NCBI GenBank assembly: GCA_041743505.1
Contig: JBGTMQ010000008.1
Coordinates: 69,183 to 133,182, forward strand
Direction: 5' to 3'
Source of the DNA: Candidatus Saccharimonadia bacterium
Lineage (GTDB): Bacteria > Patescibacteriota > Saccharimonadia > UBA4664
DNA length: 64,000 bases
Shown here: in pieces, positions 7,865 to 54,994 of the stretch
Layout of the letters: the number at the start of each line of letters is the position of its first letter
How positions within the stretch are numbered: position 1 is the stretch's first letter
Notes under the pieces: model-generated
Told to the model about the DNA's origin: nothing
Database searches by the model: none
Seen by the model: the letters and a program-made list of their open reading frames with translations, nothing else
Position numbers and translations under genes: made by a program

Positions 7865-9151
7865 CTAGTTAAGCGAGATACCCATGGATGCGAGCCGGTT
7901 GCTGTAGGCAAGAGCTTGGGCTCCCTCGGTCAAGGTATGAATGTCAAACTGCCTCATAACCTTCATGACCGCCTGAAAGTCCTGACTAGCCCTGTCATGG
8001 ACTCGCTCCAAGACGGCATCCTGGTCGCCCTTGAAGTGGGCCAGCTCCAGATCCGAGCCGTAGACGCCATAAATGCTGTCGAGCCGGTCGGTCAAGTAAA
8101 TCTTCCCGTTTGCTCTCAGAATCTCCTGAGCACCCCAGGTACCGAAACCGTTGGCCGGGCCGGCCACCAGGTCTGCTTGAACCAAGTTTGCATTGTCGAC
8201 CGTAAGAATGTTCTCCTTGGATGCGACTGCTAGGAGAACAGCATTCAAGCCGAGCCATTCCTCGTCATCAACCATGGTAGTGTCCCGGAAGCCAGCGACA
8301 CTACCCGTCACCTTCGTGTGCCGGGACAGATCATCGACATCAATGTTCGATTTCGACTTGATATTGCCCCATTCGTCTGCCACACCGACAATACGGCAGC
8401 CCCAGCGCTGCAGGAAGCGGGCCATAACCTGGCCGGCCTTACCGAACCCGTGGACGATGACCGGTGTTCCGAATTCCAATGGCATGCCATAGTGGCCGGC
8501 AGCCAGGTGCGCCATAACAGCGGCACCGTAACCGGTACATAGGCTTTGACCCGGCAACGCGCCGGGCTTGCCGGTAACACCGTCGGGGCCGACGATTTCA
8601 GCCATCACAGCCATATGCTCAGGCTTACTACCCAGGTCGGTGGCCGCAACGTACGTTGAACCAAGAATATCCCGGAAGCAAACGGCAAATCCACGAGCCA
8701 CGCCCACCAGCTCAGCAGGCGTGTAATGGTTGGCGTCAATTGGCACTCCGCTCTTGCCACCTTCTTTGTAAATGCCGAGGACATCGGCCTTATCAAGCAT
8801 GCCCCGACTCAGGAAACACATTTCTGGGCCGGTTACGCTCGTATCGAGCCGCCAACCGCCCTTATAAACGCCTTGGAGCCGCAGACAGTCATGCCATGGG
8901 TCGTAGGCCGAGGACAGAGCTACCAGGCCGGTCATCTCCTCACCAAACGGCTGCAGATGCTCGTCGAGCGCACGGAATTGGCGTTCCAGCAACTCAGTCT
9001 TACCGGTGACGGCCATTCGCTGCTCAGCATTAAGGCCCATTTTGGCGATCACCCGACTACTCAGTTCATCAGCATCTTGGATCAGGACTTCACCGCTTGC
9101 GATGTCGTCGGCGCGGACGGGTCCGGGTCCGGTCAGCAGACTGGACATCAT
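7865..9151 (-). CDS. Glu/Leu/Phe/Val dehydrogenase family (glutamate dehydrogenase-like)
   Basis: 428 aa; Gly-rich substrate region (KEGGKSG) and dinucleotide-binding HGFGKAGQV motif. Family-level call only. Confidence 0.65.
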   Translation of the reverse strand: MMSSLLTGPGPVRADDIASGEVLIQDADELSSRVIAKMGLNAEQRMAVTGKTELLERQFRALDEHLQPFGEEMTGLVALSSAYDPWHDCLRLQGVYKGGWRLDTSVTGPEMCFLSRGMLDKADVLGIYKEGGKSGVPIDANHYTPAELVGVARGFAVCFRDILGSTYVAATDLGSKPEHMAVMAEIVGPDGVTGKPGALPGQSLCTGYGAAVMAHLAAGHYGMPLEFGTPVIVHGFGKAGQVMARFLQRWGCRIVGVADEWGNIKSKSNIDVDDLSRHTKVTGSVAGFRDTTMVDDEEWLGLNAVLLAVASKENILTVDNANLVQADLVAGPANGFGTWGAQEILRANGKIYLTDRLDSIYGVYGSDLELAHFKGDQDAVLERVHDRASQDFQAVMKVMRQFDIHTLTEGAQALAYSNRLASMGISLN

Positions 9152-9409
9152 ACCTTCTCTCGGATAGCAGGGTTTCTGGCCATTACTTCATTAACTGCAC
9201 ACACGTTGCACAATATGTGCAATAATGACTTCATTACTCTACCACTCCCAGCCTAATATGACAACTCCCAGTGACACTTTTGACACTTTCGTTTATATAC
9301 CTCAGCTTGATAAGGCTATCAAAATACTTTAGAATAACATCAACCAGTGCGCTCGGCGCTGTTTTGTTTTGCGCCGAATCTAACTAATCAAAGGATTTCA
9401 TTCACTACC

Positions 9410-11488
9410 ATGGCCCGCGAATACTCGCTCGAAAACACTCGAAATATAGGCATTATCGCCCACATCGACGCCGGTAAAACTACTACAACTGAGGGTATTC
9501 TTTACCGTACTGGTAAAACCCATAAGATCGGTGAGGTCCACCAGGGCGAGGCCACCATGGACTGGATGGAGCAGGAGCGCGAGCGTGGCATCACCATTAC
9601 ATCAGCCGCCACTACCTGTTTCTGGAAGGGTAAGCGCATCAACATCATCGACACCCCCGGCCACATCGACTTTACCGTCGAAGTCGAGCGCAGTCTTCGT
9701 GTACTCGACGGCGCTGTCACAGTTTTCGACGGCAAGATGGGCGTGGAACCACAGTCCGAAACTGTTTGGCGACAGGCTGACAAGTACGGCGTTCCGCGTA
9801 TTTGCTTTATTAACAAAATCAACCAGACCGGCGGTGACTTCTACAAGAGCCTCGACAGCATCCACGAGCGCCTGAGCAAGCGCGCCTACGCCATCCACCT
9901 CCCAATCGGCTTTGAGCAGACAATCAATGGCGTCATCGATCTCATCGAAATGAAAGCCTACACCTACAAAGACTACAAAGACCACGAACTCATCGAAGGC
10001 GAAATCCCCGAGGACATGAAGGACAGGGCTGAACGCTACCGCCAGCACCTGGTCGAAGCCGCCGTCGAAGCCGATGATGAACTCATGGAAAAGTACCTCG
10101 AAGGCCACGTCCTAACAACTGACGAGCTCAAATCAGCCATCCGCAAGAGCGTCCTGACCGGCCAATTCTTTGCCGTTACCGGTGGTGATGGCCGCGGTGT
10201 CATCGTCGAGAAGCTCCTCGACGCCATGGTCGACTTCCTGCCCAACCCGCTCGACATTGGCTCAGTCTGGGGCACCGACCCCAAGACCGGCGACGAAATC
10301 GAGCGCAAGCCTTCCGACTCTGAGCCATTTTCCGCCCTGGCCTTCAAAATTGCCACTGACCCGTTCATCGGTAAATTGGCCTTCTTCCGTGTCTATTCCG
10401 GCATCGTCAAAAGCGGTTCCTACATCCTCAACGCCTCAACTGGTGAAAAGGAGCGTATCGGCCGTCTCGTCTTAATGCACGCTAACTCCCGCGAAGAAGT
10501 CCAGGAAGTCCACGCCGGCGAAATTGCTGCCGCTGTCGGCCTCAAGAACACGACCACCGGTCACACTCTGACCGACCTCGATCACCCGGTCATTCTCGAA
10601 AGCATCGTCTTCCCCGAGCCGGTTATTTCCATTGCTGTTGAGCCTAAAACTAAAGCCGACCAGGAAAAGATGGGTACCGCTCTCCAGCGCCTAGCCGAAG
10701 AAGACCCCACCTTCCGCGTACGCACCGACGAAGAAACCGCTCAAACCCTCATTAGCGGCATGGGCGAGCTCCACCTCGACATTATCGTCGACCGCATGAA
10801 GCGTGAGTTCAAGGTCGAAGCCAATGTTGGTAAACCCCAGGTTGCCTACCGTGAAACCATCAAAAAGACCGTTCAGGTCCAGGGCAAATTCGTGCGCCAA
10901 AGTGGTGGTCGTGGTCAGTACGGTGACGTCTGGCTCGAAGTATCGCCCAACGAAATGGGCGGCGGTTTTGTCTGGGATAACGCCATCGTCGGCGGTGTCG
11001 TCCCACGCGAGTACATCAACCCGACCGAACAGGGCGTCAAAGAAGCCATGCAAAACGGCGTGCTTGCCGGCTACCCGGTCGTGGACCTCAAGGTCAAGCT
11101 CTACGACGGCTCCTACCACGACGTTGACTCCAGCGAAATGGCCTTCAAAATTGCCGGCTCCATGGCTCTCCAGGAAGGCGTCCGCAAAGCCGACCCGATC
11201 ATTCTTGAGCCAGTCATGAAAGTTGAGGTTGTCGTCCCCGAAGAGTACATGGGTGACGTCATCGGCGATCTCAACTCCAAGCGCGGCCGTATCGAAAGCA
11301 TGGAAGACCGCTCCGGCGCCAAAGTCATCGCCGCCATGGTGCCACTGGCCGAGATGTTCGGCTACACCACCAGCTTGCGCTCCATGACCCAAGGCCGCGG
11401 CTCAAACTCCATGCAGTTCGACCACTACGAAGAAGTACCTCGCAACGTCGCTGAAGAGATTATCTCCAAGCGCGCCGCTAAAGCCTAA
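9410..11488 (+). CDS. fusA: elongation factor G
   Basis: [18 protein letters not shown]1 motif, DTPGHIDF, ~690 aa. The track ORF starts at 9347; MAREYS at 9410 is the likely true start, with AAAGGA upstream. Confidence 0.95.
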
Positions 11489-11509
11489 CCGGTTACGGCC
11501 TACACGATC

Positions 11510-11537
11510 AGACCCGCACCTGGCGGGTCTTTTTGTT
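11510..11537 (+). terminator. rho-independent terminator after fusA
   Basis: AGACCCGC-acctg-GCGGGTCT followed by TTTTTGTT. Confidence 0.7.
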
Positions 11538-11539
11538 GG

Positions 11540-12286
11540 ATAAATTATTGCGCCCGCATGGGTTAATTGATAAAATTCTCAAACGCACGCTCAAGCGCGC
11601 TAAGTTGTGAGACTGGTTCGCCAGGAGCGCTGGCCTTCCGCGTTTGCTCACACCAGTTCCGAGCCGCTGACACGGCTCGGAACTGGCTACTGGAAAGAAG
11701 GCGCCTTGCTGTTGCGGTCAAGGCAGCCGGCACGCGTAGGTTCTAACCCCCCACCTCCGCGCATAAGCCGGCTCAAGCTTTCCTTGTAATATTCGAGACG
11801 GAGTCTGGATACTTGATGCGGGTAATCCAGACTCCTGGGCCGGAACCGGCTGTACGCTGCGTCGGAAGCAATGATCATGCGCTATCAATACTGCCAGTCT
11901 GCAGCTGGCTGCGGCGCAGCGTTTCATAGCAGCCATCGCGCACCCGGTTCCGGCCGCCAAGGTCGTGCGTTTGGTGATCGCCTCATCGCCAAAAACGCAC
12001 GCGGCGGGTGGACAGATTCACCCGCCAATCAAGGCGCATACTCCGATCCGCTTCTCGCCGGCGAGATGCGCCCATAGGGCGGAACGGCGTTAACCCCCAG
12101 CCGTTCCGCCCCCTTTCGCAAAACCACAGACCGGTTCACCTCGAGCCCACCATCGGCGAGGTGAACCTAGGGCGGGGCGGTAGCTTCCGCCACGTAACAC
12201 CACTACCGCCCCACCCGCCTTTCCTTGCTCCATCTAGTTCCGGATAGAGCATAGCCCGGTTAACAGCCGGGCTACTCCTTTTTAAG
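11540..12286 (+). other. ~750-nt GC-rich non-coding structured element between fusA and tuf (candidate ncRNA, unidentified)
   Basis: No credible ORF. Perfect 14-bp hairpin 11653-11686 and 11-bp hairpin 12078-12110. A ~14-bp imperfect stem lies at 12169-12217. The region ends in a hairpin plus T-run at 12251-12286. Confidence 0.35.
12251..12286 (+). terminator. putative rho-independent terminator closing the fusA-tuf non-coding element
   Basis: AGCCCGG-ttaacag-CCGGGCT followed by ACTCCTTTTTAA, immediately upstream of the tuf promoter. Confidence 0.5.
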
Positions 12287-12289
12287 GGC

Positions 12290-12319
12290 TTTACAATGAG
12301 GGCTCTCTCTGCCTATAAT
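12290..12319 (+). promoter_or_regulatory. sigma-70-type promoter for tuf
   Basis: TTTACA (12290-12295), 18-nt spacer, TATAAT (12314-12319). AAAGGAG RBS at 12476-12482. Confidence 0.55.
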
Positions 12320-12487
12320 ATGGAGGTTCCCGGTGGGAGGTATTTTTTATGTTAAAATGCTTTTCACTCAAAATGACAATAAATTGGTTCCCGAGGTAGA
12401 TAGCTAATGCGGCGCCTTTTCCGGCCTCCCGCGTGGCAGAGCTGCCACATTAACTCTTAACTAAACGGAATCACTAAAGGAGTATCA

Positions 12488-13669
<1,182 letters not shown>

Positions 13670-13693
13670 TTTAAGTATCCATCAGTTAATACC

Positions 13694-13726
13694 AAAAAAC
13701 GGGCCTCTCGGTCCGTTTTTTGGTAT
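13694..13726 (+). terminator. rho-independent terminator after tuf
   Basis: AAAAAACGGGCC-tctc-GGTCCGTTTTTT, a 12-bp stem followed by a T-run. Confidence 0.8.
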
Positions 13727-13783
13727 TTTACGAATATCATGGCATAATCGAGGCGGGTATGTACCTTCTATCGAGGAGCTAAC

Positions 13784-15889: not shown

Positions 15890-15931
15890 ATAGGGGCTCG
15901 CACATCCAGTGCGAGCCCCTATTTGACTTTT
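15890..15931 (+). terminator. rho-independent terminator after the IMPase-family gene
   Basis: ATAGGGGCTCGCAC-atcca-GTGCGAGCCCCTAT followed by TTGACTTTTG. Confidence 0.7.
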
Positions 15932-19891: not shown

Positions 19892-21106
19892 ATGAATCTA
19901 TTCGGTGAAGCACAGCGGCCGTTGGCTGACCGGGTCCGCCCGCGCACGCTCGACGAGTTTATCGGTCAGGCTCAAATAGTGGGGGAGGGCCAGTTCTTGC
20001 GCACTCTCATCCAGAGTGGCCAGCCGACCTCGCTCATTCTCTGGGGCCCACCTGGCACCGGCAAGACTACCCTAGCCCGGATCATTGCCGCTGGTGGCGA
20101 CTTTGCCTTTGAGGAAATATCGGCCGTCACCAGCGGCTTACCCGACGTCAAAAAGGTCATTGAGCGCGCAGCCCAGCGGCGCAAAGTCGGCCAAAGCACC
20201 GTGTTGTTCGTTGACGAAATTCACCGCTTCAACAAGGCCCAACAAGACGCCTTCTTGCCACACATGGAAAATGGCACCATTATACTCATCGGCGCCACGA
20301 CCGAGAACCCATCGTTCGAGGTCATCGGACCGTTGCTCTCGCGCAGCCGCGTCGTGGTGCTAGAATCACTCAGCCCCGACCAGTTAACGGCCATTGTTGA
20401 ACGGGGTATGCGAGAGTTGGATGGCAAAACCATCGAGCCCGAAGCCGCCCGCCTGCTGGCCGAGCTGGCCGGCGGCGATGCCCGCGTGGCCTTAGGCGGC
20501 CTGGAGACCGCCGCCGGCCTAGCCGATAGCATCACCCCCGACACCATCAAGCAAGCCATGCAAAAAACCAGCCTCAAATACGACAAAGGCGGTGAATACC
20601 ATTACAATCTCATCTCGGCCTTCATCAAGTCCATGCGTGGCGGGGCAGTCGACGCAGCCTTGTTTTACCTGGCCCGCATGCTTGAAGCCGGCGAAGATCC
20701 CAAGTTTATTGCCCGCCGTATAGTTATCTTCGCCTCCGAGGACGTCGGGCTGGCCGATAACACCATGCTTCCCCTGGCCGTGAGCACGTTTCAGGCTATC
20801 GAACGAATCGGCCTACCGGAGGGACGCATTATTTTGAGCCAGGCCACCATTGCCATGGCCAGATCCCCCAAAAACCGCGACGCCTACGACGCCATCGCTG
20901 CCGCCACCACTGCCGTCCGTGACAACCCATCAGCCGAGGTGCCCCTACATTTGCGCAATGCGCCCACCGGTCTCATGAAACAACTCGAATATGGCAAAGG
21001 CTACCAATGGAAGCCAGGGTTTGAGCATGAGCAGGGCTTTTTGCCAAAAGAGCTGACCAATCAGCATTTTTACCGCCCACATCCAGACAAACGGGCGGCT
21101 TTGTGA
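19892..21106 (+). CDS. rarA: replication-associated recombination protein A (AAA+ ATPase RarA/MgsA)
   Basis: LILWGPPGTGKTTLARIIA Walker A, VLFVDEIHRFNKAQQDAFLPHMENG, 404 aa. Confidence 0.9.
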   Translation: MNLFGEAQRPLADRVRPRTLDEFIGQAQIVGEGQFLRTLIQSGQPTSLILWGPPGTGKTTLARIIAAGGDFAFEEISAVTSGLPDVKKVIERAAQRRKVGQSTVLFVDEIHRFNKAQQDAFLPHMENGTIILIGATTENPSFEVIGPLLSRSRVVVLESLSPDQLTAIVERGMRELDGKTIEPEAARLLAELAGGDARVALGGLETAAGLADSITPDTIKQAMQKTSLKYDKGGEYHYNLISAFIKSMRGGAVDAALFYLARMLEAGEDPKFIARRIVIFASEDVGLADNTMLPLAVSTFQAIERIGLPEGRIILSQATIAMARSPKNRDAYDAIAAATTAVRDNPSAEVPLHLRNAPTGLMKQLEYGKGYQWKPGFEHEQGFLPKELTNQHFYRPHPDKRAAL

Positions 21107-21186
21107 GTTCTAACAAAGCCGCCCTGCCATCTGGTACTCTATGCTTCAGACGCTAGTATTCTCATTATCGTCGCTAAGGAGGCAAC

Positions 21187-21723: not shown

Positions 21724-21744
21724 CCAGTATGGTTTAATAAGGGC

Positions 21745-21999
21745 ATGAAGAAAGCCCGAACCAAAACAACGATCCGTGAAGCCGATAGTGTCTATTTTCT
21801 CAAAATCCTGCTGTTCTTTTTGTTAAGCACGATCTGGATTAAACATAACGGCTATCTAGTGTTTCCGTTGGGGTTGGCTCTGGGCCTTCTCTTTACCCGG
21901 TCAGACCATTTTGTCATCGACCGCAAAATCGAATATGCCATTTTAATCATCGGCACCCTCTTGAGCGCCTCAGTTGGCGGAATCTGGCTAACGTTCTAG
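21745..21999 (+). CDS. small hypothetical membrane protein
   Basis: 84 aa with two hydrophobic helices. Confidence 0.3.
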   Translation: MKKARTKTTIREADSVYFLKILLFFLLSTIWIKHNGYLVFPLGLALGLLFTRSDHFVIDRKIEYAILIIGTLLSASVGGIWLTF

Positions 22000-22000
22000 T

Positions 22001-22204
22001 CTAATAGTCCTCAAGCACACGCTGGATAGTGATCCACATAGTCAAAGCCATCAAACCAAATTGAGCCAGGGCTAATGCAACCCGCACTGGCGTGTAGACT
22101 GGTGGCACTAGGCCATATAAAAAGCCAATTGCAATAATAACGCCCAACAAATACATAAGCTGGCGGGCATACGTGAGGCTGGTGTATGAGTAATCTGGTT
22201 GCAT
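22001..22204 (-). CDS. small hypothetical membrane protein
   Basis: 67 aa with two hydrophobic helices. Confidence 0.3.
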   Translation of the reverse strand: MQPDYSYTSLTYARQLMYLLGVIIAIGFLYGLVPPVYTPVRVALALAQFGLMALTMWITIQRVLEDY

Positions 22205-22398
22205 ATAAATCCTAACTTATTTGTATCAATCCTCTATTGTATCACATAACATTACATTTGTCAATAAAGTCATCCATCTGAGTCTCGCCATCTCCCCATC
22301 TCTCACGGGTGACGTCACTGGAGGGCTGCCGACAAACACCAATCGTTAGCGACTGGTTTCGAGCTAGCCCCTGGTTAGTGAGAAGTTACTGCTTAAGA

Positions 22399-22442
22399 AA
22401 AAAGTAAGGCCCCGCCGCTCTATAGTGAGAGCGGCGGGGCCG
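22399..22442 (-). terminator. rho-independent terminator for the minus-strand gene at 22523-22885
   Basis: Perfect 13-bp GC stem (22409-22421 / 22430-22442). On the minus strand it is followed by TTACTTTTTT. Confidence 0.65.
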
Positions 22443-22522
22443 GATAGCGGACGTCTAACGGTTACCGGAGTTGCCTTCGATGTGTCGTCTGGACGGTCAA
22501 CCCAGCTTGTTGGGTAAAAAGG

Positions 22523-22885
22523 TCACGCTGAAATGGGTTGCGTCGCTTCTGTGGTCACACCAAGCTCAGCGTGGGCGAACCACTTGCCCGAGAGGCGGTT
22601 GGCTTCTCCGCCCCGAGCTGCCAGTGACGTTCCATCGGGGAGGCCGATGGTGATTTGCTGCGGGTGCCCGACCGCCTGGGCGTTTGAGGCGGCACAGTGC
22701 GACGAGTGGTTGATTTCGAACAGGCAGTAAGAGTCCGGATACTGGCAAGCCGTCTGCGGGTCGTGAATGTTTACAACCACGAACGGGCCGTTGCCATACC
22801 AGCTGACAGGGTGAACGCAGTCATCAAGTAGGCTCGGATTCCAGACAACGGTGTCGCCAGTCTTGAATAGAGTCGCGGTGCTCAT
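22523..22885 (-). CDS. hypothetical protein (120 aa)
   Basis: ORF track. The terminator hairpin lies directly downstream. Confidence 0.45.
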   Translation of the reverse strand: MSTATLFKTGDTVVWNPSLLDDCVHPVSWYGNGPFVVVNIHDPQTACQYPDSYCLFEINHSSHCAASNAQAVGHPQQITIGLPDGTSLAARGGEANRLSGKWFAHAELGVTTEATQPISA

Positions 22886-23027
22886 TTGAGTCTCCTTGAG
22901 AAGACGGGTTGTGAAGGCAGCTCGGCATTAGACGGGACATCCCGCCGAACATCTCTACATTATAACATAAAGCGAATCTAAACACAAGTCTTACAGCCTC
23001 TTCAAACGCTCCATCAAAACATTCTTG

Positions 23028-23057
23028 TTGACAGAGAGCCATCAGATAAGCTATAGT
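23028..23057 (+). promoter_or_regulatory. sigma-70-type promoter upstream of rplC, leading the S10-less S10/spc operon
   Basis: TTGACA (23028-23033), 18-nt spacer, TATAGT (23052-23057). A ~130-nt leader follows before rplC. Confidence 0.5.
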
Positions 23058-23188
23058 CGCATGGTATTTGTCGGTGCCTATGCATCACAACTCGCAAGTT
23101 TCAGCTAGGACATGAGCAGGTCTGAGTAACATCAGATACCACTCGTAGCCTGGAGCTTGTTTTTGCCAGACTTTCTAACAGGGTAACC

Positions 23189-45855: not shown

Positions 45856-46101
45856 CATCAACCGAGTAAACGGTCACAAGTCCACTAATGGCCAGGAGAA
45901 GCAACCCCTCTCCTGGCCATTCACATTACGATGTCATCTTCATCTATGCGTCAATCAAAATAGCCAAGCACACAAGATTATTGCAATTTTTTGATCGAGG
46001 CAGCCATATCTGGAAAGAAATGCAAGAAATGCCATTGCCAAGACATAAAAAAACAACATACAATAACACTAAAGTGGTTATGCTAAAAAGGTGGAGGGTT
46101 T

Positions 46102-49100
46102 ATGTTTCGATTGAGAAGCGTCCGGCGACTCGTACGTCAAAGTTCTATGGCTGCTAGTCGCCTTTTAAGTATAAAATTAATAGCAGCCTTGAAAGAACAT
46201 AAATTCAAGCAACCGGTAATTCATCTTTCAACAAACCCGTTTAGGGCGATATTAACACGCAACACCCTCAATATACTTGCCGTTGGCGTATTTTTTCTCA
46301 ATATTACCGCCATAGGTATTCCGGGCCTTATGGCCCAGTGGCAGGAGAAGGAGGCCCGAACGCCTCAAGCTCTTCAAGCTACGGATAATGATTTTGCTGC
46401 AGCCGCAGACGGCGCTAGTACCTCAAATAAGGCGTTAAAACTCGATAAAGCCGTAACAGATGAACTCGATAAGACGCGAGAAGAACTCATTCATGGTAAG
46501 GCAAAAAAGAATCCTAAACGCGTAAAAATGCTCGAAGAAGACCGTGACGTCAACTCCCGCGTTTTCTTAAATGACGATGGCTCAAAAACCCTAGAGAAGA
46601 GCACCTCTGCCACCAGTTACCGTGACAGCTTAGGCAAATGGAAAGACGTGGATGTCTCACTTGAGAAGGATTCGGTTAAAAATGAATGGAGTACAAAATC
46701 CAACTCCTGGAAGGCAACTTTTAAGGAAGCCAACGCTGAAACTGCAGTTGAATTATCACGTGGGGCACAAACTGTCCGCATTGCACCGGTAGGAGGCCAA
46801 AAGGTCAAGCCGACAGTAACTGGTAATGCGCCAAAACAATTAGTTACTTATAAAAACGTCTGGCCTGACGTCGATTTGCGTTACGTAGTAAATGGCTCGT
46901 CAGTAAAAGAGAGCATTTGGATTAAAGCGCCAACACAGCAAACAGAGTTTCAATTCAGCGTTAAAGGAGGCAACCTTTCGCCAAAGCCCGGTGAAACTGG
47001 CCGCTACAGTCTTGATGGGGAACTGTCTGATTTCACTCTCACGCGTTCATTTGTTGCCACAGCCGATCAGGGCATAGTGGGGGATGACGGATATATTACA
47101 CAGGATGTAAAACAAAACAGCATAATCCTAAAACTTAACCCGGAGTGGATTAAGCAGCAACCTGCTAAAGCATATCCGGTTGTCATTGATCCTTCCTTTA
47201 CTAGCTACACAACCGCACAAAACCATATGTCCTTTAAATCTGATGGCTGGTCATGCAACGCGCTCGACTGCGGAATAGGCACTGGCTACACAGGATCTCA
47301 CCAGTGGCGTAGTATAGCCTGGTTTCCCTATGACACCCTGGGACAAGCACCCACTAAGCACCTCACCAGCGCACAACTGTACTTGGAGATGGTTGACCCG
47401 GGAGTGATCAGCTACCCGGGTACCTATGACCCAAGGACAATCTCAGTCTATAAAGGCCAACGCGGCAGTAATGGTCATTATAATATAAACAGCGGCGTAA
47501 CTGATTATGGCATGGGTAGTGGCTCCATAGGGTACAACGGCACTATTGACGTTACAACTATATATCGCAATGCAATTGCAAATGCCGACTGGGGTATGCA
47601 TCTGTTCTTTGTTGGTGATGAAAGTCAGTATTCATACAAATTTAAGACATATCCAGATGCAAAGGTAACGTTTACCTATACTCACTCGCCGGGAGCCGCC
47701 ACACTCGAAGCACCCACAGATAAAGCATCTGTAGTTACGTCTCAACCTGTACTAAAAGCGAGCACCGCCACTGACCCCGATGGAGATCCGGTGCGGTACC
47801 GCTTTAAAGTGGCCACCAGTCCTGATGCCGAAGGTGGTACGGTAGTGAATTCGGGCTGGCTAGACACTCCGCAATGGACTGCTCCGGATGGCTCACTACA
47901 GGATGGAATGACATACTATTGGAAAGTTCAAACGTGGGACGGACTGTACATTAACTCATTTGGTACAGCAGGCTCCTGGAGCACCAGTTCAATCAGATCG
48001 TTCCGGGTTGATATGCGTAAAGGCAAAGACAATACTCAGGCCTATGACGCTGTCGGACCAATTAATGTCGATCTTGCTACAGGCAATCTAACAACAGGAA
48101 CAAAGAGCCACAGCATAGCTGCGCTTGGTGGTTCACTCGGCGTGAACCTGGACTACAACTCACCTCAGCGTTCACGCCCGGGCCTGATAGGTAAGTATTG
48201 GAATAATCCCACGCAGGCCGCAACATTCCCATCATCCTCAACCGCAGCTAGCGTAGAGCGGGTTGATGGCGTGGTTGACTTTAACTGGGGCAGCGGTTCG
48301 CCCGAGCCGGCCACTGTAACCACGGATAATTTTCTTGTCCGCTGGTCAGGTTATTTTGTAGCGCCGCAAGCTGGCACATATCAATTCGGAACCACCAGCG
48401 ATGATGGTGTACGCATTTACATCAATGACCTCAACACGGCATATGTTGATCAATGGAGTACTAGCCCAAGTAACATATATGGCGCAAGCGTGACGCTCGC
48501 GGCTGGTCAAGTAATTCCAGTTAAATACGAGTACCGTGAAGTCGGCGGACTGGCAAATACCAAGTTTCTCGTAAAAACGACTGATAGCTCTATTACTGCG
48601 CAACCTATACCAACTTCATGGCTGCAAACCGGCACACGATCTGTGGCGGTAGAACATGGACTCACTGGACGATACTTCGCCTACACAGGAGACAATCCGC
48701 CCGCCTCTCCATCAGATAGTGATCCAAGCCTATTCCTCAAACGCACAGATAGCAGCCCGTCATTCTATTGGAATAGTGCGGCCCCGGTATCTGGCGGGCC
48801 AACAGACAGGTTCTTGGTTCGTTGGACAGGTTATTATACGCCGGATGTGACAGACTCCTACCGATTCCGGATTGCAGCCGATGATGGCGTACGCATGTGG
48901 GTGAATAATCTTATTACGAACACGCAAGTTATTAACGACTGGGCAGATAATCCAGGCACGCGTGAGCAAGCCACGCCTATTTCACTAACCGCAGGGCAGT
49001 CCTATCCCGTTACAATCGAGTATTATGAGCACATTGGTAGCGCCATTTTCGACCTGCAATATAAAGGTTCCGATGGGATTTCTAAGGCCGTTCCATCTAA

Positions 49101-52100
49101 GTTGCTTAGCCCTAAGGTTCAAACGTTGCCCGACGGCTGGACGCTTGGTGGCGATATAAAGGGTGATCTGCCCTACGACTTTGCCCATATCGGCGCAAAT
49201 TCGGCAGTTCTCCAGGACACGAATGGTGAGTCGCATGAGTATAAGTGGACTGGCGCATCATACATTTCTCCTCCGAACGAAGACGGGCAGTTAACGCGTA
49301 ATGATGATGGCACCCTAACACTGCAGGCTGGCGATGGTCGCACCTACATCTTCGGGACAGATGGCAAGCTTTTGTCATCAACCTTACCAGCGGATGACAA
49401 AAATCCAGCTGCCGTTCAATACGAATATGGCCTGACGCCTTCTCGTCTCACTAAAATCAAGGACGGCATCAATCTTAACCGTTACGCTGAGTTGATTTAT
49501 GCTGGTGATAGCCGTTGTCCAAGTGCGCCAAGCGGATTTGTTGGAGCCAATGGCACAATGCTGTGCGCCGTCGTAACAACCGACGGCTCAACCACTACTC
49601 CGACAGATGCTAACATAACAAAGTTCTTCTATAGCGCCGACACCGGCGGCAACAAGCGTTTAGCCCGAGTAGTATCACCCGGAGCCGAGACAAGCGACTT
49701 CTCATACCTCACGGAGGATATTAACTCGCCAAACTCATGTTCTGGTTGTCTAAGTCAAATCCGCGACGCGATTGCAAATGACGCTGTAGCAGCAGGTGAA
49801 CGGTCACAAGACGCCACCGTAATGACTGAAATTGCATATGACGCGTTAGGACGAGTTATGAGCATAACTGGCCCAGCGGCACAGGCCGGGATAGCTCGAT
49901 TGGCCCACACTTACGAGTATCAAGCTGGCCACACGAAACTTCATACTACTGGCGCCACGGAGCCTAATGGCTTTACCCGGAAGGTTACATATGACAGCAC
50001 GTATAGGACGACAGAGGACCGCGATGCAGCCAATGTAGCTACATCAACCGAATGGGATGCTGGTAAAGACCAGGTTTTGTCATTAACGGATGGCGCTGGG
50101 CTTAAGAGCACAACGCATTACGACTACGCCGACCGGATAACCGACCAGTACGGCCCGGCCCCGGCCGGTTGGTTCGATATGACTCCTGGTACGAATTATA
50201 ATAAGCCTTCATCGGGCTATATCAATCAGATCCCACGTAAGCAAGCCAGCTATGACGAGGGCATTAACGGCCTCGCTGCCTCGTACTACACTTATAGCAC
50301 TAGCAGCAAAGCTCTAACGGGCGCGCCTAAGGGGCACCAAACAGGCATCGGCGGCACCGGCGGTGACGTAAATAAAAACTGGGCCGGCACGGCTCCATTC
50401 ACCACTTCATCACCATGGGGTGCGCGATTAACCGGCGATATCCTGTTGGGCGCAACCGGTAACTATACCTTCCGCATAGCCAGCGATGATGGAGTGCGGC
50501 TCTGGATTGACGATAAGCTCGTCATCAATGACTGGGCTGACGGCAGCTACCGCTCACATACCCAGCTCACAGGTGTGACAGTCAATAATGACACAGCCAA
50601 TAAGTACCATCGCATTCGCCTCGATTATTACAATAAAAGTAGTTCGGAGTCAGATGCGCAACTAGTGCTCTATATGACACCGCCAGGCGGCTCGGAGCAA
50701 TCCGGGCTCGGCAGTATTCTTGTTCCTCGCTATGGACTCGCAACAACTGCTAAAAACTACGACTCCTCCAGTAGCGTAGGTGATACTACCATCGCGACTA
50801 ACTACGGGAACAACCCAGAGCTAGCACTGCCGCAGTCTAAGACGGTTGATCCCGGAACGGGCACATTGAATCTTGCTAAAACCGCTAGCTATGAAACTCA
50901 GGGCGCAACCGGTAGTTACTTACGTCAACTCGGCACTGTACTGCCAGGCGGAAGTTCAACGAGTTATGGCTACTACTCGGCCACGGAAGTAAAAGATAAC
51001 CCTTGCACAACTGGCATTACCGAAACGTATGTGCAGGCCGGCATGATGAAGCTAAAGACACAGCCAGATCCTGATGGAGCCGGCTCTCAGGTCGGACGAA
51101 AATCGGAATCCATATATGACAATGCAGGACGAATAGTTGCCGCTCGTTACAATGCCGATTCATGGACATGCACAACCTATGACAACCGCGGCCGAGTAAC
51201 CCAAGTCTCAGTACCGAGCATAAATGGTCAGCCCGGCCGGACCATCACAACGAATTGGGCCGTAGGCAGCAATCCATTTGTAACCAGTATCACCGATAAC
51301 AACGGAACGGTAACTACAACTTCAGACTTATTAGGCAGAACAGTCATCTATCAGGACTCTCTCGGTACCTGGACCGACTACTCATACGATAGCCAAGGCC
51401 GCTTGATCAGTAAGGATAGCGATATGGGCTTAGAAGAGTTCGTCTATGACAGCTATAACCGGCTAACTGCGCAGAAGCTTGATGGCACAACGCTCGCAGT
51501 ACCGACGTATGATGCTTATAGCCGCATCACGAGCGTGACCTATCCGACGGCTGGGGCACAAGCTTTATCCATCTCACGGAATGACCATGGTCGCACCACA
51601 GGCTTAGATTACACCCTTGGCAACGGGTCAACGCACCTAACCGATTCCATTACACGTAGTCAATCTGGCAAGGTTGTAGGCGGTACAGAGTTAGGCCAGA
51701 CTAAGAGTTACACTTATGACAAAGCAGGCCGCCTTACGGCTGCGACTATCGGTTCGAACCAATTTACCTATAATTTCGGAGCCCCCACTGGCTGCTTAGG
51801 CGCCTATAACGCCGATGCGGGCAAGAACGCCAACCGTATAAGTATGAGTAAAACCGTAGGCGGAGTAACTACATCTACTTCTTACTGCTATGACTATGCT
51901 GACCGGTTGATCCAAAGTTCAGACTCCAACGCTGTAGACCCAGCCTATGACTCACATGGAAACCTCATAAATATGGGAACTTCGTGGAATGGCAAGTACA
52001 CGCAGTTCGCATATGACTCAAGTGATCGCAATATTGGTGTTCTTCAAAACTGGGGCAATGATTACGATATATATTACAACCGTGACGTTCAAAATCGCAT

Positions 52101-53166
52101 AACCTCAAGATTCGTTGCAGGCCTCAGTACAAGCTCAACCTGGTATGGTTTCACAGGTGCCAGTAGTGCGCCCGCCTTTACTCGAAATGCCAATTGGGAT
52201 ATTACAGAGAAGTATATGTCGCTCCCTGGCGGCGTACTATTAACCGTACGTCCCGGCCAAACTGGTGATAACCAAAAAGTATTCTCACTTCCCAACACTC
52301 ATGGTGATGTGATGGCTACCACCAACACGAGCGGCAACCAAACTGGTACGTTTAGCTACGATCCGTTTGGACAGACCCTAAGCTCAAGCATACCCGACAA
52401 TGCAGCAGGAGATGTCTCATTTGCTTGGGTTGGCCAACATCAAAAAGCCACTGAAGCAGATTTGGCGCTTAGGCCGATCCAGATGGGAGCTAGGGTGTAC
52501 ATTCCTTCACTTGGGAGATTCTCGAGCACAGACTCTGTAGAGGGTGGTGCCGAGAACGCCTATGTCTACCCTCCCGATCCAATTAATCTGTACGATATCG
52601 ATGGGAAGAACACGGCAGAGGAGGCCCTGGATGGTATAGGCGCCAGCGCAAATAGTGTTGGCTGGAAACTCGACGCACTCATGGTGGCCGTAGGTGTCGC
52701 ATGTGTAGCCAGCGGAGTCGGGGTAGTCATTTGTGGCGTAGGAGCCGCAACCGGTCTAGTTGTAACGACGGCTCAAGCATACAACAAGCACAATCGAGAT
52801 CCTGGCGCTGCAGCTGGAGAATTATTTCTATCAAGTATTTTCTGGGCAGCAGGTGGACCAATAGCTAAAAACATTGCTAAAATCAGCATCTCCTACATTG
52901 CTCCTGTCATTGCGCAGCGAGTAAAGCAGGTGGCGCCCGCAACGCCAATACGTGCAATTAATCGAACAGTGGCTACTGCAAAGCAGACTATACGGAACTC
53001 AATAGGTTATGCTGCAACCCTGTACGATGCGGCACGCCATATACCAGCTGCAAATCGGAACTATAATTATGGTGGAACACCCTATATGACAAGCCCATGG
53101 AGCGGGTATGCGGAGGTAAAAGAAATGATTCTGAAACACTTGGCTAATACGTGGAGAAGGGTATAA
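46102..53166 (+). CDS. giant polymorphic toxin: N-terminal signal-anchor, three PA14 domains, RHS/YD-repeat shell, RHS core ending DPINL, C-terminal glycine-zipper toxin domain
   Basis: GGAGG RBS. PA14-like segments start at ~48181, ~48658 and ~50269, each with the FLVRW(S/T)GY...DDGVR(I/M/L)(Y/W)(I/V)(N/D)(D/N) pattern. Many YD repeats ([29 protein letters not shown]...). RHS core tail ...[39 protein letters not shown] at ~52480-52605. The C-terminal 186 aa contain [26 protein letters not shown]. Confidence 0.9.
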
Positions 53167-53484
53167 ATGCGAATCTTTCCGGATAGATCCAGAAACTATA
53201 AAATCAAGGGGTGTGTTTGTGGAGAAACCAATGAGTCACTCAAGGTAAATAAGAACATGTATCATAATACGATCTTTCTATCTCTACTTAGTGTCCCGGT
53301 TATTCTGGGCTTTCCATGGGTAAGCCTGCACACTGATTTAGGTACAAAAGGTATAGTTGCCTGGGGGCTGATTCTAATTGTCTTGGGTTTTTATACATAC
53401 GGTACTACAAAGTTACTTGGTAAAGGCCATTCCTTGTTATGCTCTGTTCGACGAACAATGATTAATTTTGGAGCATTAACCTAG
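53167..53484 (+). CDS. putative cognate immunity protein (two-TM, CxCG...GHxLLCxxRR family), paralog 1
   Basis: Start abuts the toxin stop (TAAATG). MRIFPDRSRNYKIKGCVCGE..., two hydrophobic helices, ...GKGHSLLCSVRR. Confidence 0.65.
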   Translation: MRIFPDRSRNYKIKGCVCGETNESLKVNKNMYHNTIFLSLLSVPVILGFPWVSLHTDLGTKGIVAWGLILIVLGFYTYGTTKLLGKGHSLLCSVRRTMINFGALT

Positions 53485-53504
53485 GCACCAAATAACAGAT
53501 GTGA

Positions 53505-53888
53505 AGCACTGGCTCACACGACAATACGTCCGATGGCGCATTTGTAGGTGAGGCTGGGCTGGGCCTACTATTTCTTGGACTAGGCGGGGAAGGAGCAAAA
53601 CAAATAGCTAAGATAACAATAAAGCCCATCGCAGCCAAAATAGCTCAGACAGCTCGCCAAGTTGCACCAAAGATAACCATAAACAATAAGGTTGTCGCCG
53701 TAAAGCAGCGCATCCAATATACAATTGGATATGGTGCAACAATAACAGATACATTACGTCAGATCTGGCCCAGCAAGCCGGTTTATAACTATGGTGGTAC
53801 GCAGTATATGACAAGTCCTTGGAGCGGCTTAGCGCAAGCAAAGGAAGTCATTATGAAATACTTAGCTAAGGCGTGGAGCGGGGCTTAG
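53505..53888 (+). pseudogene. orphan, start-less toxin C-terminal cassette paralogous to the last ~105 aa of the 46102-53166 toxin
   Basis: Frame-0 translation ...GGEGAKQIAKITIKPIAAKIAQTARQVAPKITI...[35 protein letters not shown] aligns with the toxin end ...[29 protein letters not shown]...[35 protein letters not shown]. No start codon; the frame is bounded upstream by a stop at 53502-53504. Confidence 0.7.
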
Positions 53889-53889
53889 A

Positions 53890-54217
53890 ATGCAAATATT
53901 CCCAAATCGCAAAAAAAAAGCAAAGCGTTACTTCATGTATTTGTGGGCGGTCTAACGAAATGCAAAAGATAAATAAAGCGAAATATCACAATATGACCCT
54001 ATTAATCAGTATGGGCCTAGTTGGTTACCTAGGTGCATTAGTGATTTTCCCGATGTTACTGCAGTCGCCCCGAGGTGTTACTACGAGAGGATGGATTGCC
54101 TTCGCCATAGGCACTTGCATGGTAGCGTATCTGATCTTCCTTGTCAGAAAAAATACAAAGCAGGGCCACAAATTACTTTGTTCAATGAGAAAATCCATGT
54201 TTCAGCTTGCGAGTTAG
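53890..54217 (+). pseudogene. immunity-family paralog 2 interrupted by a frameshift in an A9 homopolymer (53911-53919)
   Basis: ATG at 53890 reads MQIFPNRKKK, then hits a stop after 21 codons. The -1 frame continues ...KQSVTSCICGRSNEMQKINKAKYHN...QGHKLLCSMRKSMFQLAS. Removing one A restores a 108-aa paralog. The track's intact ORF needs a GTG at 53873 inside the preceding cassette. Confidence 0.6.
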
Positions 54218-54264
54218 CCGAGCACTCCTAAGTGCTCAATGTAGCGAGCACCACTTACACTAAG

Positions 54265-54543
54265 ATGAAAATATTTCCCCTCCCTTTAACGAAATATCCT
54301 CTAGACAAGGCGCTCAAAGAGATTAAGTTGTTCTTGGCCATTGGTTATTCAATACTTGCCTTAACGGTGTTCGTAAGCATATTCTTCGCATTGCCTGCGA
54401 TGGTGGTATGCGGTCGTCCGCTCGTATTGTGCTTTAATCCCGCTGTCAAAAAGCATCCAGATGGTAAAAAATACATGACTGCGAGTGTTGTGTTAGCGGT
54501 CCTATCGGTTCTATGCTTTGTGGTGTATCTAATAGTCAAGTAG
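54265..54543 (+). CDS. small two-TM membrane protein (MKIFP... N-terminus, distinct core), putative immunity paralog 3
   Basis: Internal Met start MKIFPLPLTKYP chosen by analogy with the paralog N-termini. Two hydrophobic helices. Lacks the GH.LLC motif. Confidence 0.45.
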   Translation: MKIFPLPLTKYPLDKALKEIKLFLAIGYSILALTVFVSIFFALPAMVVCGRPLVLCFNPAVKKHPDGKKYMTASVVLAVLSVLCFVVYLIVK

Positions 54544-54593
54544 CATTCTCCGCACACTACTTACATTTATATAAAGTTTAAGCAGCTGATAAC

Positions 54594-54914
54594 ATGAAAT
54601 TTTTCCCAGACCGTTCAAAAAAATATAAGCTAAAAAAATGTGTATGCGGGAAAGAAACCGAAAATGTCAAAGTTAACAGGAGCATATATCATAACGTAAT
54701 TCTATTTACGATAATTGGCGTTTTCGGTTTCCTTCTCTTGACCGTAATCAGTTTCTATACTCCGTTGCCTACTGATTCATGGATTGCCTGGCTGATTATG
54801 GCAGCAATACTTAGCTATGATGGATGGCAACTGTGGGTTAATACCCAACAGGGACATAATTTATGGTGCGCACTGAGAAGGGTCATGATAAGTGTTGCAG
54901 GAGCTAAAGACTAG
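54594..54914 (+). CDS. immunity-family paralog 4
   Basis: MKFFPDRSKKYKLKKCVCGKETE..., two TM helices, ...QQGHNLWCALRR. Confidence 0.65.
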   Translation: MKFFPDRSKKYKLKKCVCGKETENVKVNRSIYHNVILFTIIGVFGFLLLTVISFYTPLPTDSWIAWLIMAAILSYDGWQLWVNTQQGHNLWCALRRVMISVAGAKD

Positions 54915-54994
54915 AAAGACTCACAGAATACTTGAGCTTACAGCTATGATAATATTTTCTCATGCTTGCCAGACATCGAAATAACTAGCTCGAC

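Follow-up and report, generated by a model that had tools for sequence, protein, structure and literature searches.

A lineage-restricted hairpin array between fusA and tuf in Saccharimonadia, a candidate large noncoding RNA

In this study, we show that the gap between fusA and tuf in a 64-kb stretch of Candidatus Saccharimonadia DNA (TM7, Patescibacteria; hereafter the window, with positions counted from its first nucleotide) holds an element of about 700 gene-free nucleotides, in which roughly 14 stable hairpins stand back to back. The element is real, recurrent and unusual in its evolution, and it is dispensable within the clade; we describe how it is built, how it recurs at one and the same site in relatives, how its strands differ and how one of its stems covaries. 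Moreover, we give about even chances to the reading that positions ~11583–12284 form a lineage-restricted, independently transcribed plus-strand noncoding RNA (ncRNA) gene of about 700 nt, built as an array of stem-loops, whose transcription is predicted from promoter-like and terminator-like signals. Selection appears to act on the stability of the hairpins and not on their sequence.

Results

The first-pass annotation of this DNA, made from its letters, had described positions 11538–12286 as a GC-rich, hairpin-dense, noncoding element, and folding bears out both the density of the hairpins and the lack of coding sequence. The plus strand has a minimum free energy (MFE) of −358 kcal/mol against −270 ± 6 kcal/mol in dinucleotide shuffles (z = −14.7), of the 26 hairpins in the whole window that have a perfect stem of 9 bp or more, six are packed into a 560-nt span here (about 0.2 expected), and the element is the sole place in the window where consecutive 200-nt segments all fold far better than shuffles. 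It holds no credible open reading frame (ORF): none that overlaps it exceeds 80 amino acids, none has a Pfam match, and tblastx between the elements of different lineages found no conserved peptide. As to GC richness, its content of 0.58–0.66 stands above that of the four other intergenic regions measured (0.42–0.50) but close to that of coding DNA (~0.57), in a genome of about 57% GC; high GC against the intergenic background usually marks a structured ncRNA. Over most of the element region the plus strand is C-rich (negative GC skew). Two other long ORF-poor regions of the window (21724–23188 and 53167–54994) contain no hairpin arrays; the second of these, 1.8 kb without an ORF of 120 or more amino acids, follows an ORF of 2354 amino acids (46102–53166), has a GC content of 0.42 and folds in an ordinary way.

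On the plus strand, the element opens with a candidate promoter at 11548–11576, read by eye and below the threshold of our scan, in which a weak −35 box (TTGCGC) is followed by a 17-nt spacer and an extended −10 box (TGaTAAAAT). Just past the predicted transcription start lies the conserved 5′ motif ACGCTCAAGC (11587–11596), an exact 10-mer that is collinear with the related locus L088 and aligned with L161. Next comes a variable stem-loop array (11606–12075), in which folding gives about nine hairpins and for which blastn and nhmmer found no similarity to relatives; its stems include those at 11653–11686, 11800–11835, 11964–12001, 12003–12026 and 12036–12075, and positions 11838–11859 pair over a long range with 11934–11955. 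It is followed by the conserved hairpin J (12075–12130), made of TAGGGCGGAACGGC, a loop and GCCGTTCCGCCCCC and then AAAACCACAG, with a 13-nt exact match and collinear matches in L088, and by a second, paralogous module (12133–12232) that contains hairpins K (12133–12167) and L (12170–12216; TAGGGCGGGGCGG...). The element closes in a terminator-like hairpin, TAGCCCGG-TTAACAG-CCGGGCTA followed by CTCCTTTTTA (12252–12284, the hairpin itself at 12252–12274), which was found by the terminator scan and would be the 3′ end of the RNA; as the first-pass annotation had stated, this hairpin and its T-run sit just before the tuf promoter (12290–12319). The long stems picked out there by eye are present with small corrections. 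That at 11653–11686 is indeed 14 bp and perfect, that given as 11 bp at 12078–12110 is a perfect stem of 12 bp (12077–12111), and that given as about 14 bp at 12169–12217 has 14 bp at 12170–12216 including one C·A mismatch, with 10 bp perfect. Additional perfect stems are found at 11800–11835, 11964–12001 and 12133–12167.

The adjacent modules of about 90 nt at 12046–12132 and 12133–12232 are tandem paralogues with 71% identity in their alignment. Common to both are CGGCGAG(A/G)TG and TAGGGCGG(AA/GG)CGG, the direct repeats D5 and D7, whose copies stand about 94 nt apart; the difference between AA/UU and GG/CC in their stems is compensated. Paralogous modules with a compensated stem change suggest that the array grows by duplication of modules while its stems are kept.

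A protein search placed the EF-G of the window at 81–91% identity to Candidatus Saccharimonadia proteins, and the matching contigs were then compared; a look-up of identical proteins had no entry for the Tuf or the EF-G of the window. In five other Saccharimonadia lineages, with EF-G 87–90% identical, an ORF-free, hairpin-dense element of 500–750 nt lies directly past the fusA terminator, with plus-strand z = −13.7 (L088–L091 and L135), −10.9 (L087), −10.5 (L086, in which an intact NUDIX gene comes next and then tuf), −6.2 (L161) and −8.6 (L162). Gap segments with called genes gave z near 0 in the same folding test. Beyond these lineages the gap is filled in other ways: by a NUDIX hydrolase gene alone (L081, L095), by unknown ORFs and NUDIX (L084, L163–L168, L118, L149), by an M20 peptidase or glycosidase-like gene and NUDIX (L151, L092), or by six minus-strand genes (L083). 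The commonest occupant is a NUDIX gene of 180–187 amino acids directly 5′ of tuf, and the other cargo comprises an M20 peptidase, a glycoside-hydrolase-like protein, a dockerin-containing protein and small unknown ORFs. The tuf promoter is conserved across the relatives aligned, except L004, so that tuf has a promoter of its own in this clade and the fusA–tuf gap is an ancestral slot of variable content, a hot spot for cargo genes; the earlier view that the element splits two normally adjacent genes does not hold. In a scan of genome contigs with EF-G, the relatives among the matches listed were at most 71% identical, and their gaps held unrelated ORFs without similarity to the element. A metagenome scan with the pattern of the tuf promoter and leader returned 69 loci, of which 8 had a Tuf or EF-G match by tblastn. 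One locus of that scan, L093, looks like a coincidence, the pattern falling there on the promoter of a gene for a peptide-binding ABC transporter, and about 60 contigs among L093–L160, many of them from human gut metagenomes, fit the pattern without such a tblastn match. In L161, 885 nt without called genes (906–1789, GC 0.55) lie 5′ of fusA, with the minus strand folding better than the plus strand (z about −7 vs −4), and may be another structured element.

In many relatives the NUDIX gene stands directly 5′ of tuf, the window lacks this gene, and the length of the element is of the same order as that of the gene, which would suit a degraded protein-gene remnant, a possibility that the first-pass annotation had itself raised. 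We regard this origin as very improbable. Searches by tblastn with the NUDIX proteins of L081 and L084 and with seven other gap proteins (from L081, L083 and L084) found no match in 11489–12487 at E ≤ 10, no trace was seen by Pfam or tblastx, in L086 the element occurs side by side with an intact NUDIX gene, and pseudogenes do not acquire folding at z = −15.

The two strands are not equivalent. Measured against dinucleotide shuffles, the plus strand outdoes the minus strand in all six lineages; z on the minus strand was −10.1 in the window (plus −14.7), −11.5 in L088 (plus −13.7), −4.7 in L087 (plus −10.9), −4.9 in L086 (plus −10.5), −5.2 in L161 (plus −6.2) and −3.7 in L162 (plus −8.6); the difference reaches 4–6 z units in L087, L086 and L162. 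In the folds of L086, L087 and L088, single C·A mismatches number 5–7 on the minus strand and 0–1 on the plus strand, from which it follows that the positions concerned are G·U pairs on the plus strand. It is also on the plus strand only that the covariation of hairpin J, through A-U, G·U and G-C, works.

What the elements have in common are short islands: a sigma-70-like promoter, the 5′ motif ACGCTCAAGC, the J-type hairpin CGGRRCGG...CCGYYCCG and a plus-strand terminator. The window and L088 share ACGCTCAAGC and GCGGAACGG/CCGTTCCGCCCCC in collinear order. Hairpin J reads TTAGGGAGCGGAACGGTG...CACCGTTCCGCCCCCCCTAAAACTACAG in L088 and has recognizable versions in L161, L162 and L087. In the window, L088–L091 and L161 the J motif is confined to the syntenic site, and within the 1.64 Mb compared, the J-type stem was found at the syntenic site only, apart from four chance matches in unrelated taxa. 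A search for the J-hairpin pattern in viruses gave 26 matches, which were discarded as generic GC-rich hairpins or terminators in unrelated phages, lacking the flanks of J. Because the element bodies do not align, a covariance model of the whole element was not feasible and covariation was limited to one helix, so that the comparison with relatives' spacers suggested in the first-pass annotation succeeded for the J/L core and left the remaining stems unalignable. For this 9-bp helix, with the arms of six sequences excerpted by hand, 53 of 54 cells are paired (98%) and three of the nine pairs change on both sides, two of them passing through A-U, G·U and G-C and one switching between C-G and U-A; there are 3 G·U against 1 C·A. 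The covariation score was 0.41 against 0.25 ± 0.05 in shuffles, and 1 of 500 shuffles reached the observed score. The C-run after hairpin J varies between near-identical strains, with 7, 8 or 9 C.

These observations bear on a second explanation, namely that the element is nonfunctional filler, in which palindromes at the level of DNA, made by template switching, small inverted duplications or the scars of mobile DNA, persist or regenerate in a hot spot of recombination and insertion without any function as RNA. The highly variable content of the slot (NUDIX, M20 peptidase, a glycosidase-like protein, unknown ORFs, six minus-strand genes), the many perfect stems, the internal tandem duplication and the near absence of sequence conservation all speak for it. 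So does the fusA terminator of near-identical strains (L088 7112–7165 compared with L089 and L091), in which the hairpin loop is inverted, ATTACG in L088 and CGTAAT in L089. This inversion amounts to a DNA-level flip between the arms of the hairpin, and the same stem comparison shows a compensatory change from U-A to C-G. We nevertheless think it unlikely that the element is filler. At this divergence neutral DNA should be randomized, with only the functional tuf leader keeping about 70% identity, whereas the density of hairpins, the size, the absence of ORFs, the promoter and the terminator persist over six lineages. Moreover, the plus strand is favoured in six of six, the J stem passes through G·U intermediates, and since the plus strand is C-rich, a deamination bias would by our own reasoning predict the opposite asymmetry of mismatches. 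Saccharibacteria genomes measure about 1 Mb, and 0.7 kb of junk is unexpected in them.

The signals around the hairpins bear on a third explanation. Promoters at scan level are present in L088 (TTGACG-17-TAAAGT), L087 (TTGACA-17-TATTAT, 11 of 12) and L162 (TTGCCA-17-TAGACT); they align with TTGCGC-17-TAAAAT of the window, with its extended −10 TG, and all are placed past the fusA terminator and ahead of the first hairpin. At the other end, the element stops at a plus-strand terminator in five of the six lineages (the window, L088, L087, L161 and L086). If the element were instead a cis-acting RNA, it would be an extended 3′ region of fusA, made by read-through of the terminator or from a small promoter, which might block 3′ exonucleases on the upstream mRNA and keep incoming polymerases away from the strong tuf promoter as an insulator, by analogy with the REP/BIME hairpin clusters of enterobacteria. 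Its position always directly past fusA, whatever comes next (in L086 NUDIX and not tuf), the terminator that closes it just before the next promoter, and its orientation, which is that of fusA and which suits the plus-strand asymmetry equally well, agree with such a role, and a need for generic stable hairpins only would explain the free drift of the sequence. On the other hand, a strong fusA terminator with its T-run precedes the element in every lineage, a conserved promoter-like site stands between that terminator and the hairpins, about nine sampled related lineages manage without the element, 14 hairpins far exceed what stabilization or termination needs, and such a role gives no account of the J hairpin and the 5′ motif, which are conserved. 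A cis-acting role seems to us improbable on balance.

The genes on either side have control regions of their own, as the first-pass annotation had noted and as our scans found. The upstream neighbour, fusA (9410–11488, plus strand), encodes an EF-G that is 100% identical to P0001 and 81–91% identical to the Saccharimonadia EF-G matches. It is followed by an intrinsic terminator, AGACCCGC-ACCTG-GCGGGTCT and a T-run (11510–11538, hairpin 11510–11530), and an equivalent strong hairpin lies directly 3′ of fusA in every relative that carries the element. The downstream neighbour, tuf (EF-Tu; 12488–13669, plus strand), starts after a gap of 999 nt counted from the end of fusA at 11488, and its promoter and conserved leader (12290–12487) lie outside the element. 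The promoter, TTTACA-18-TATAAT at 12290–12319, scores 11 of 12 as a sigma-70 site; promoter and leader are about 70% identical in L087–L091 and are kept in the relatives aligned, except L004. The form CTTTACAA-N16-CTATAAT is seen in the window, L081, L083, L084, L086–L091 and L001. At most about 8 nt 3′ of this promoter there is a conserved small hairpin with a GGTATTTTTTATG run (12327–12351 in the window), and farther 3′ a conserved hairpin, GTGGCAG-AG-CTGCCAC, followed by ATTAAC (12433–12454). Taken together, these parts resemble a leader or attenuator of tuf that is conserved in the clade. The classical str operon is broken up in the window, with no rpsG before fusA; a divergent Glu/Leu/Phe/Val-type dehydrogenase gene (7865–9151, minus strand) precedes fusA (here taken as 9347–11488), which has a promoter-like site of its own at 9307–9335, and the same layout of dehydrogenase and fusA is found in L088–L091. 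The genome uses long perfect-stem hairpins (12–15 bp) at other places too (13688–13727, 15890–15922, 21093–21124, 22408–22441 and 45887–45921), and the one after tuf (13688–13727), with A- and T-runs on its flanks, looks like a bidirectional terminator.

Discussion

It seems that the structured plus-strand RNA proposed in the first-pass annotation is upheld in its strand and altered in its kind. The plus strand folds better in six of six lineages, promoter-like and terminator-like signals are read on it, and the covariation of J works on it only; hardly any sequence is conserved, so this is not a classical RNA with a conserved fold, and what persists is the character of a hairpin array and a few islands. 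Under the ncRNA gene reading, transcription would start near 11583 from a sigma-70-type promoter just past the fusA terminator, the transcript would string together about 14 stable stem-loops in tandem, and its 3′ end would be set by an intrinsic terminator of the element's own, directly ahead of the tuf promoter. Selection on this RNA would maintain the stability of the hairpins and a few islands, namely ACGCUCAAGC as the 5′ motif and UAGGGCGGAACGG...CCGUUCCGCCCCC in hairpin J, and leave the other sequence free. With no more than that maintained, the array could turn over quickly through the duplication of hairpin modules and compensatory substitutions.

Several observations weigh against an ncRNA gene. 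Blastn and nhmmer gave no alignment between the element bodies beyond the short collinear islands, while the adjacent tuf leader stays about 70% identical, and the element is absent from about nine sampled related lineages whose slot holds unrelated genes, so that it is dispensable. The promoter of the window is weak, with three of six matches in the −35 box and a score below the threshold of the scan, and L161 and L086 have no promoter at scan level either. The strand test within the window is ambiguous, the raw MFE being lower on the minus strand and C·A mismatches numbering 3 on the plus strand vs 2 on the minus. The covariation could be evaluated on one 9-bp helix only, and excerption by hand biases its count towards pairing. 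Stems are mostly perfect Watson-Crick helices with large loops, which palindromes at the DNA level could give as well, and the loop flip between near-identical strains points the same way. Finally, the search for further copies covered only the 64 kb of the window, in which no part of the element recurs.

As to function, we suggest with low confidence that the RNA may act in trans as a multivalent scaffold or decoy. In that role, its many generic hairpins or exposed C-rich loops would occupy a factor that binds hairpins or double-stranded RNA (dsRNA), or G-rich sites of mRNA. The modest excess of exposed C-runs and that of GTTCCG/CGGAAC in stems are no more than hints in this respect. Unpaired C-runs stand on stable stems (AACCCCCCA at 11746–11754 and AACCCCCA at 12092–12099), and over the six elements 10 C-runs are predicted as unpaired vs 1 G-run; this is weak evidence, because MFE folding inherently leaves C unpaired more than G. 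The k-mer GTTCCG/CGGAAC is about 8-fold enriched, chiefly in the window, and C-runs are enriched too, which is suggestive and not interpretable. At 11752–11758 a hairpin exposes CACCUCC, the anti-Shine-Dalgarno core of 16S rRNA, beside a run of six C, and this may be chance.

The element could not be assigned to any known family. The first-pass annotation had been unable to match it by eye to RNase P, tmRNA, signal recognition particle (SRP) RNA or 6S RNA, and Rfam 15 agrees: at gathering thresholds the window contains three tRNAs only, all outside the element, at E ≤ 10 the best match over 11400–12560 scores 20.6 bits against a threshold of 233, and in the loci of the five relatives no match falls inside the elements at E ≤ 1. 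Neither those four families nor OLE, GOLLD, ROOL, raiA, HEARO or 6C, nor any other curated family, accounts for it. Among 50,697 phage records and 72,556 plasmid records, blastn found none that matches the element. Our literature search turned up no account of an element of this kind, whether in Saccharibacteria or in the fusA–tuf gap, and no large ncRNA is described for Saccharibacteria or the Candidate Phyla Radiation (CPR) in Rfam or the literature searched.

The large ornate ncRNAs (OLE, GOLLD, ROOL, raiA and HEARO/omega RNA) resemble the element in being several hundred nucleotides long, GC-rich against other intergenic regions, ORF-free, highly structured and separately transcribed, the last of which is predicted for the element. 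They have strong sequence conservation and multi-stem junctions and are detectable by Rfam, in contrast to the element, which consists for the most part of independent hairpins in linear succession and conserves next to nothing of its sequence. The sRNAs with C-rich loops (6C RNA of Actinobacteria, RsaE/RoxS type) likewise show unpaired C-runs on stable stems, but are 80–200 nt long with defined conserved loops, and no 6C match to the element was seen even at E = 10. The guide arrays of CRISPR and TIGR are, like the element, noncoding arrays of short structured units with fast turnover, and occur in parasitic or episymbiotic bacteria. An array of this type was ruled out, there being no tandem or regularly spaced direct repeats: Tandem Repeats Finder (minimum score 30) reported 0 arrays in the element, its direct matches are seven two-copy pairs of 10–18 nt at irregular spacing, and no cas or tas gene was noted beside it, though no systematic search for these was made. 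Integron attC sites, with their core sites RYYYAAC ... GTTRRRY, were compared by eye only; some stems of the element contain GGAAC/GTTCC.

The REP/BIME clusters of enterobacteria are likewise clusters of stable GC-rich intergenic hairpins. They lie between convergent or codirectional genes, are cotranscribed with the flanking mRNA, and function through the shape of their hairpins as 3′ stabilizers and terminators; REPs are a dispersed, multicopy family of conserved sequence that is mobilized by RAYT transposases. In the element, by contrast, each hairpin is different, no copy is seen elsewhere in the window or in the flanks of the relatives, and there is a promoter-like site of its own. Dispersed palindromes of the REP, BIME or REPIN kind were accordingly rejected, as no repeated unit was found in the window or, for the J-type stem, in the 1.64 Mb compared. 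Judged by its sequence features, the element would be closest in its working to a hairpin cluster of the REP/BIME type or to a large intergenic ncRNA, and it is a member of neither.

Large bacterial ncRNAs are rare, and those that have been characterized tend towards sophisticated functions. In genomes of about 1 Mb, the upkeep of 0.7 kb of noncoding DNA next to two of the most highly expressed genes comes at a cost, and the manner in which this DNA evolves is unusual: its position, size, hairpin density, strand and both ends are conserved while nearly all of its sequence is free. Even if the element is filler, the fusA–tuf gap is still marked as a cargo hot spot in the clade. A bolder possibility, to which we attach only a slim chance, is that episymbiotic Saccharimonadia possess an undescribed class of large RNA, a hairpin-array transcript of ~0.5–0.75 kb that turns over by module duplication and compensatory change as if under evolutionary conflict, and that might serve as a multivalent decoy for a nuclease or defence factor recognizing hairpins or dsRNA, or as the precursor of many small hairpin RNAs directed against phage, host or self transcripts. 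If the ncRNA gene is real, it would be an RNA whose function needs many generic hairpins and not one precise fold, and it would offer a tractable case in which stems are maintained through compensatory evolution and the duplication of modules.

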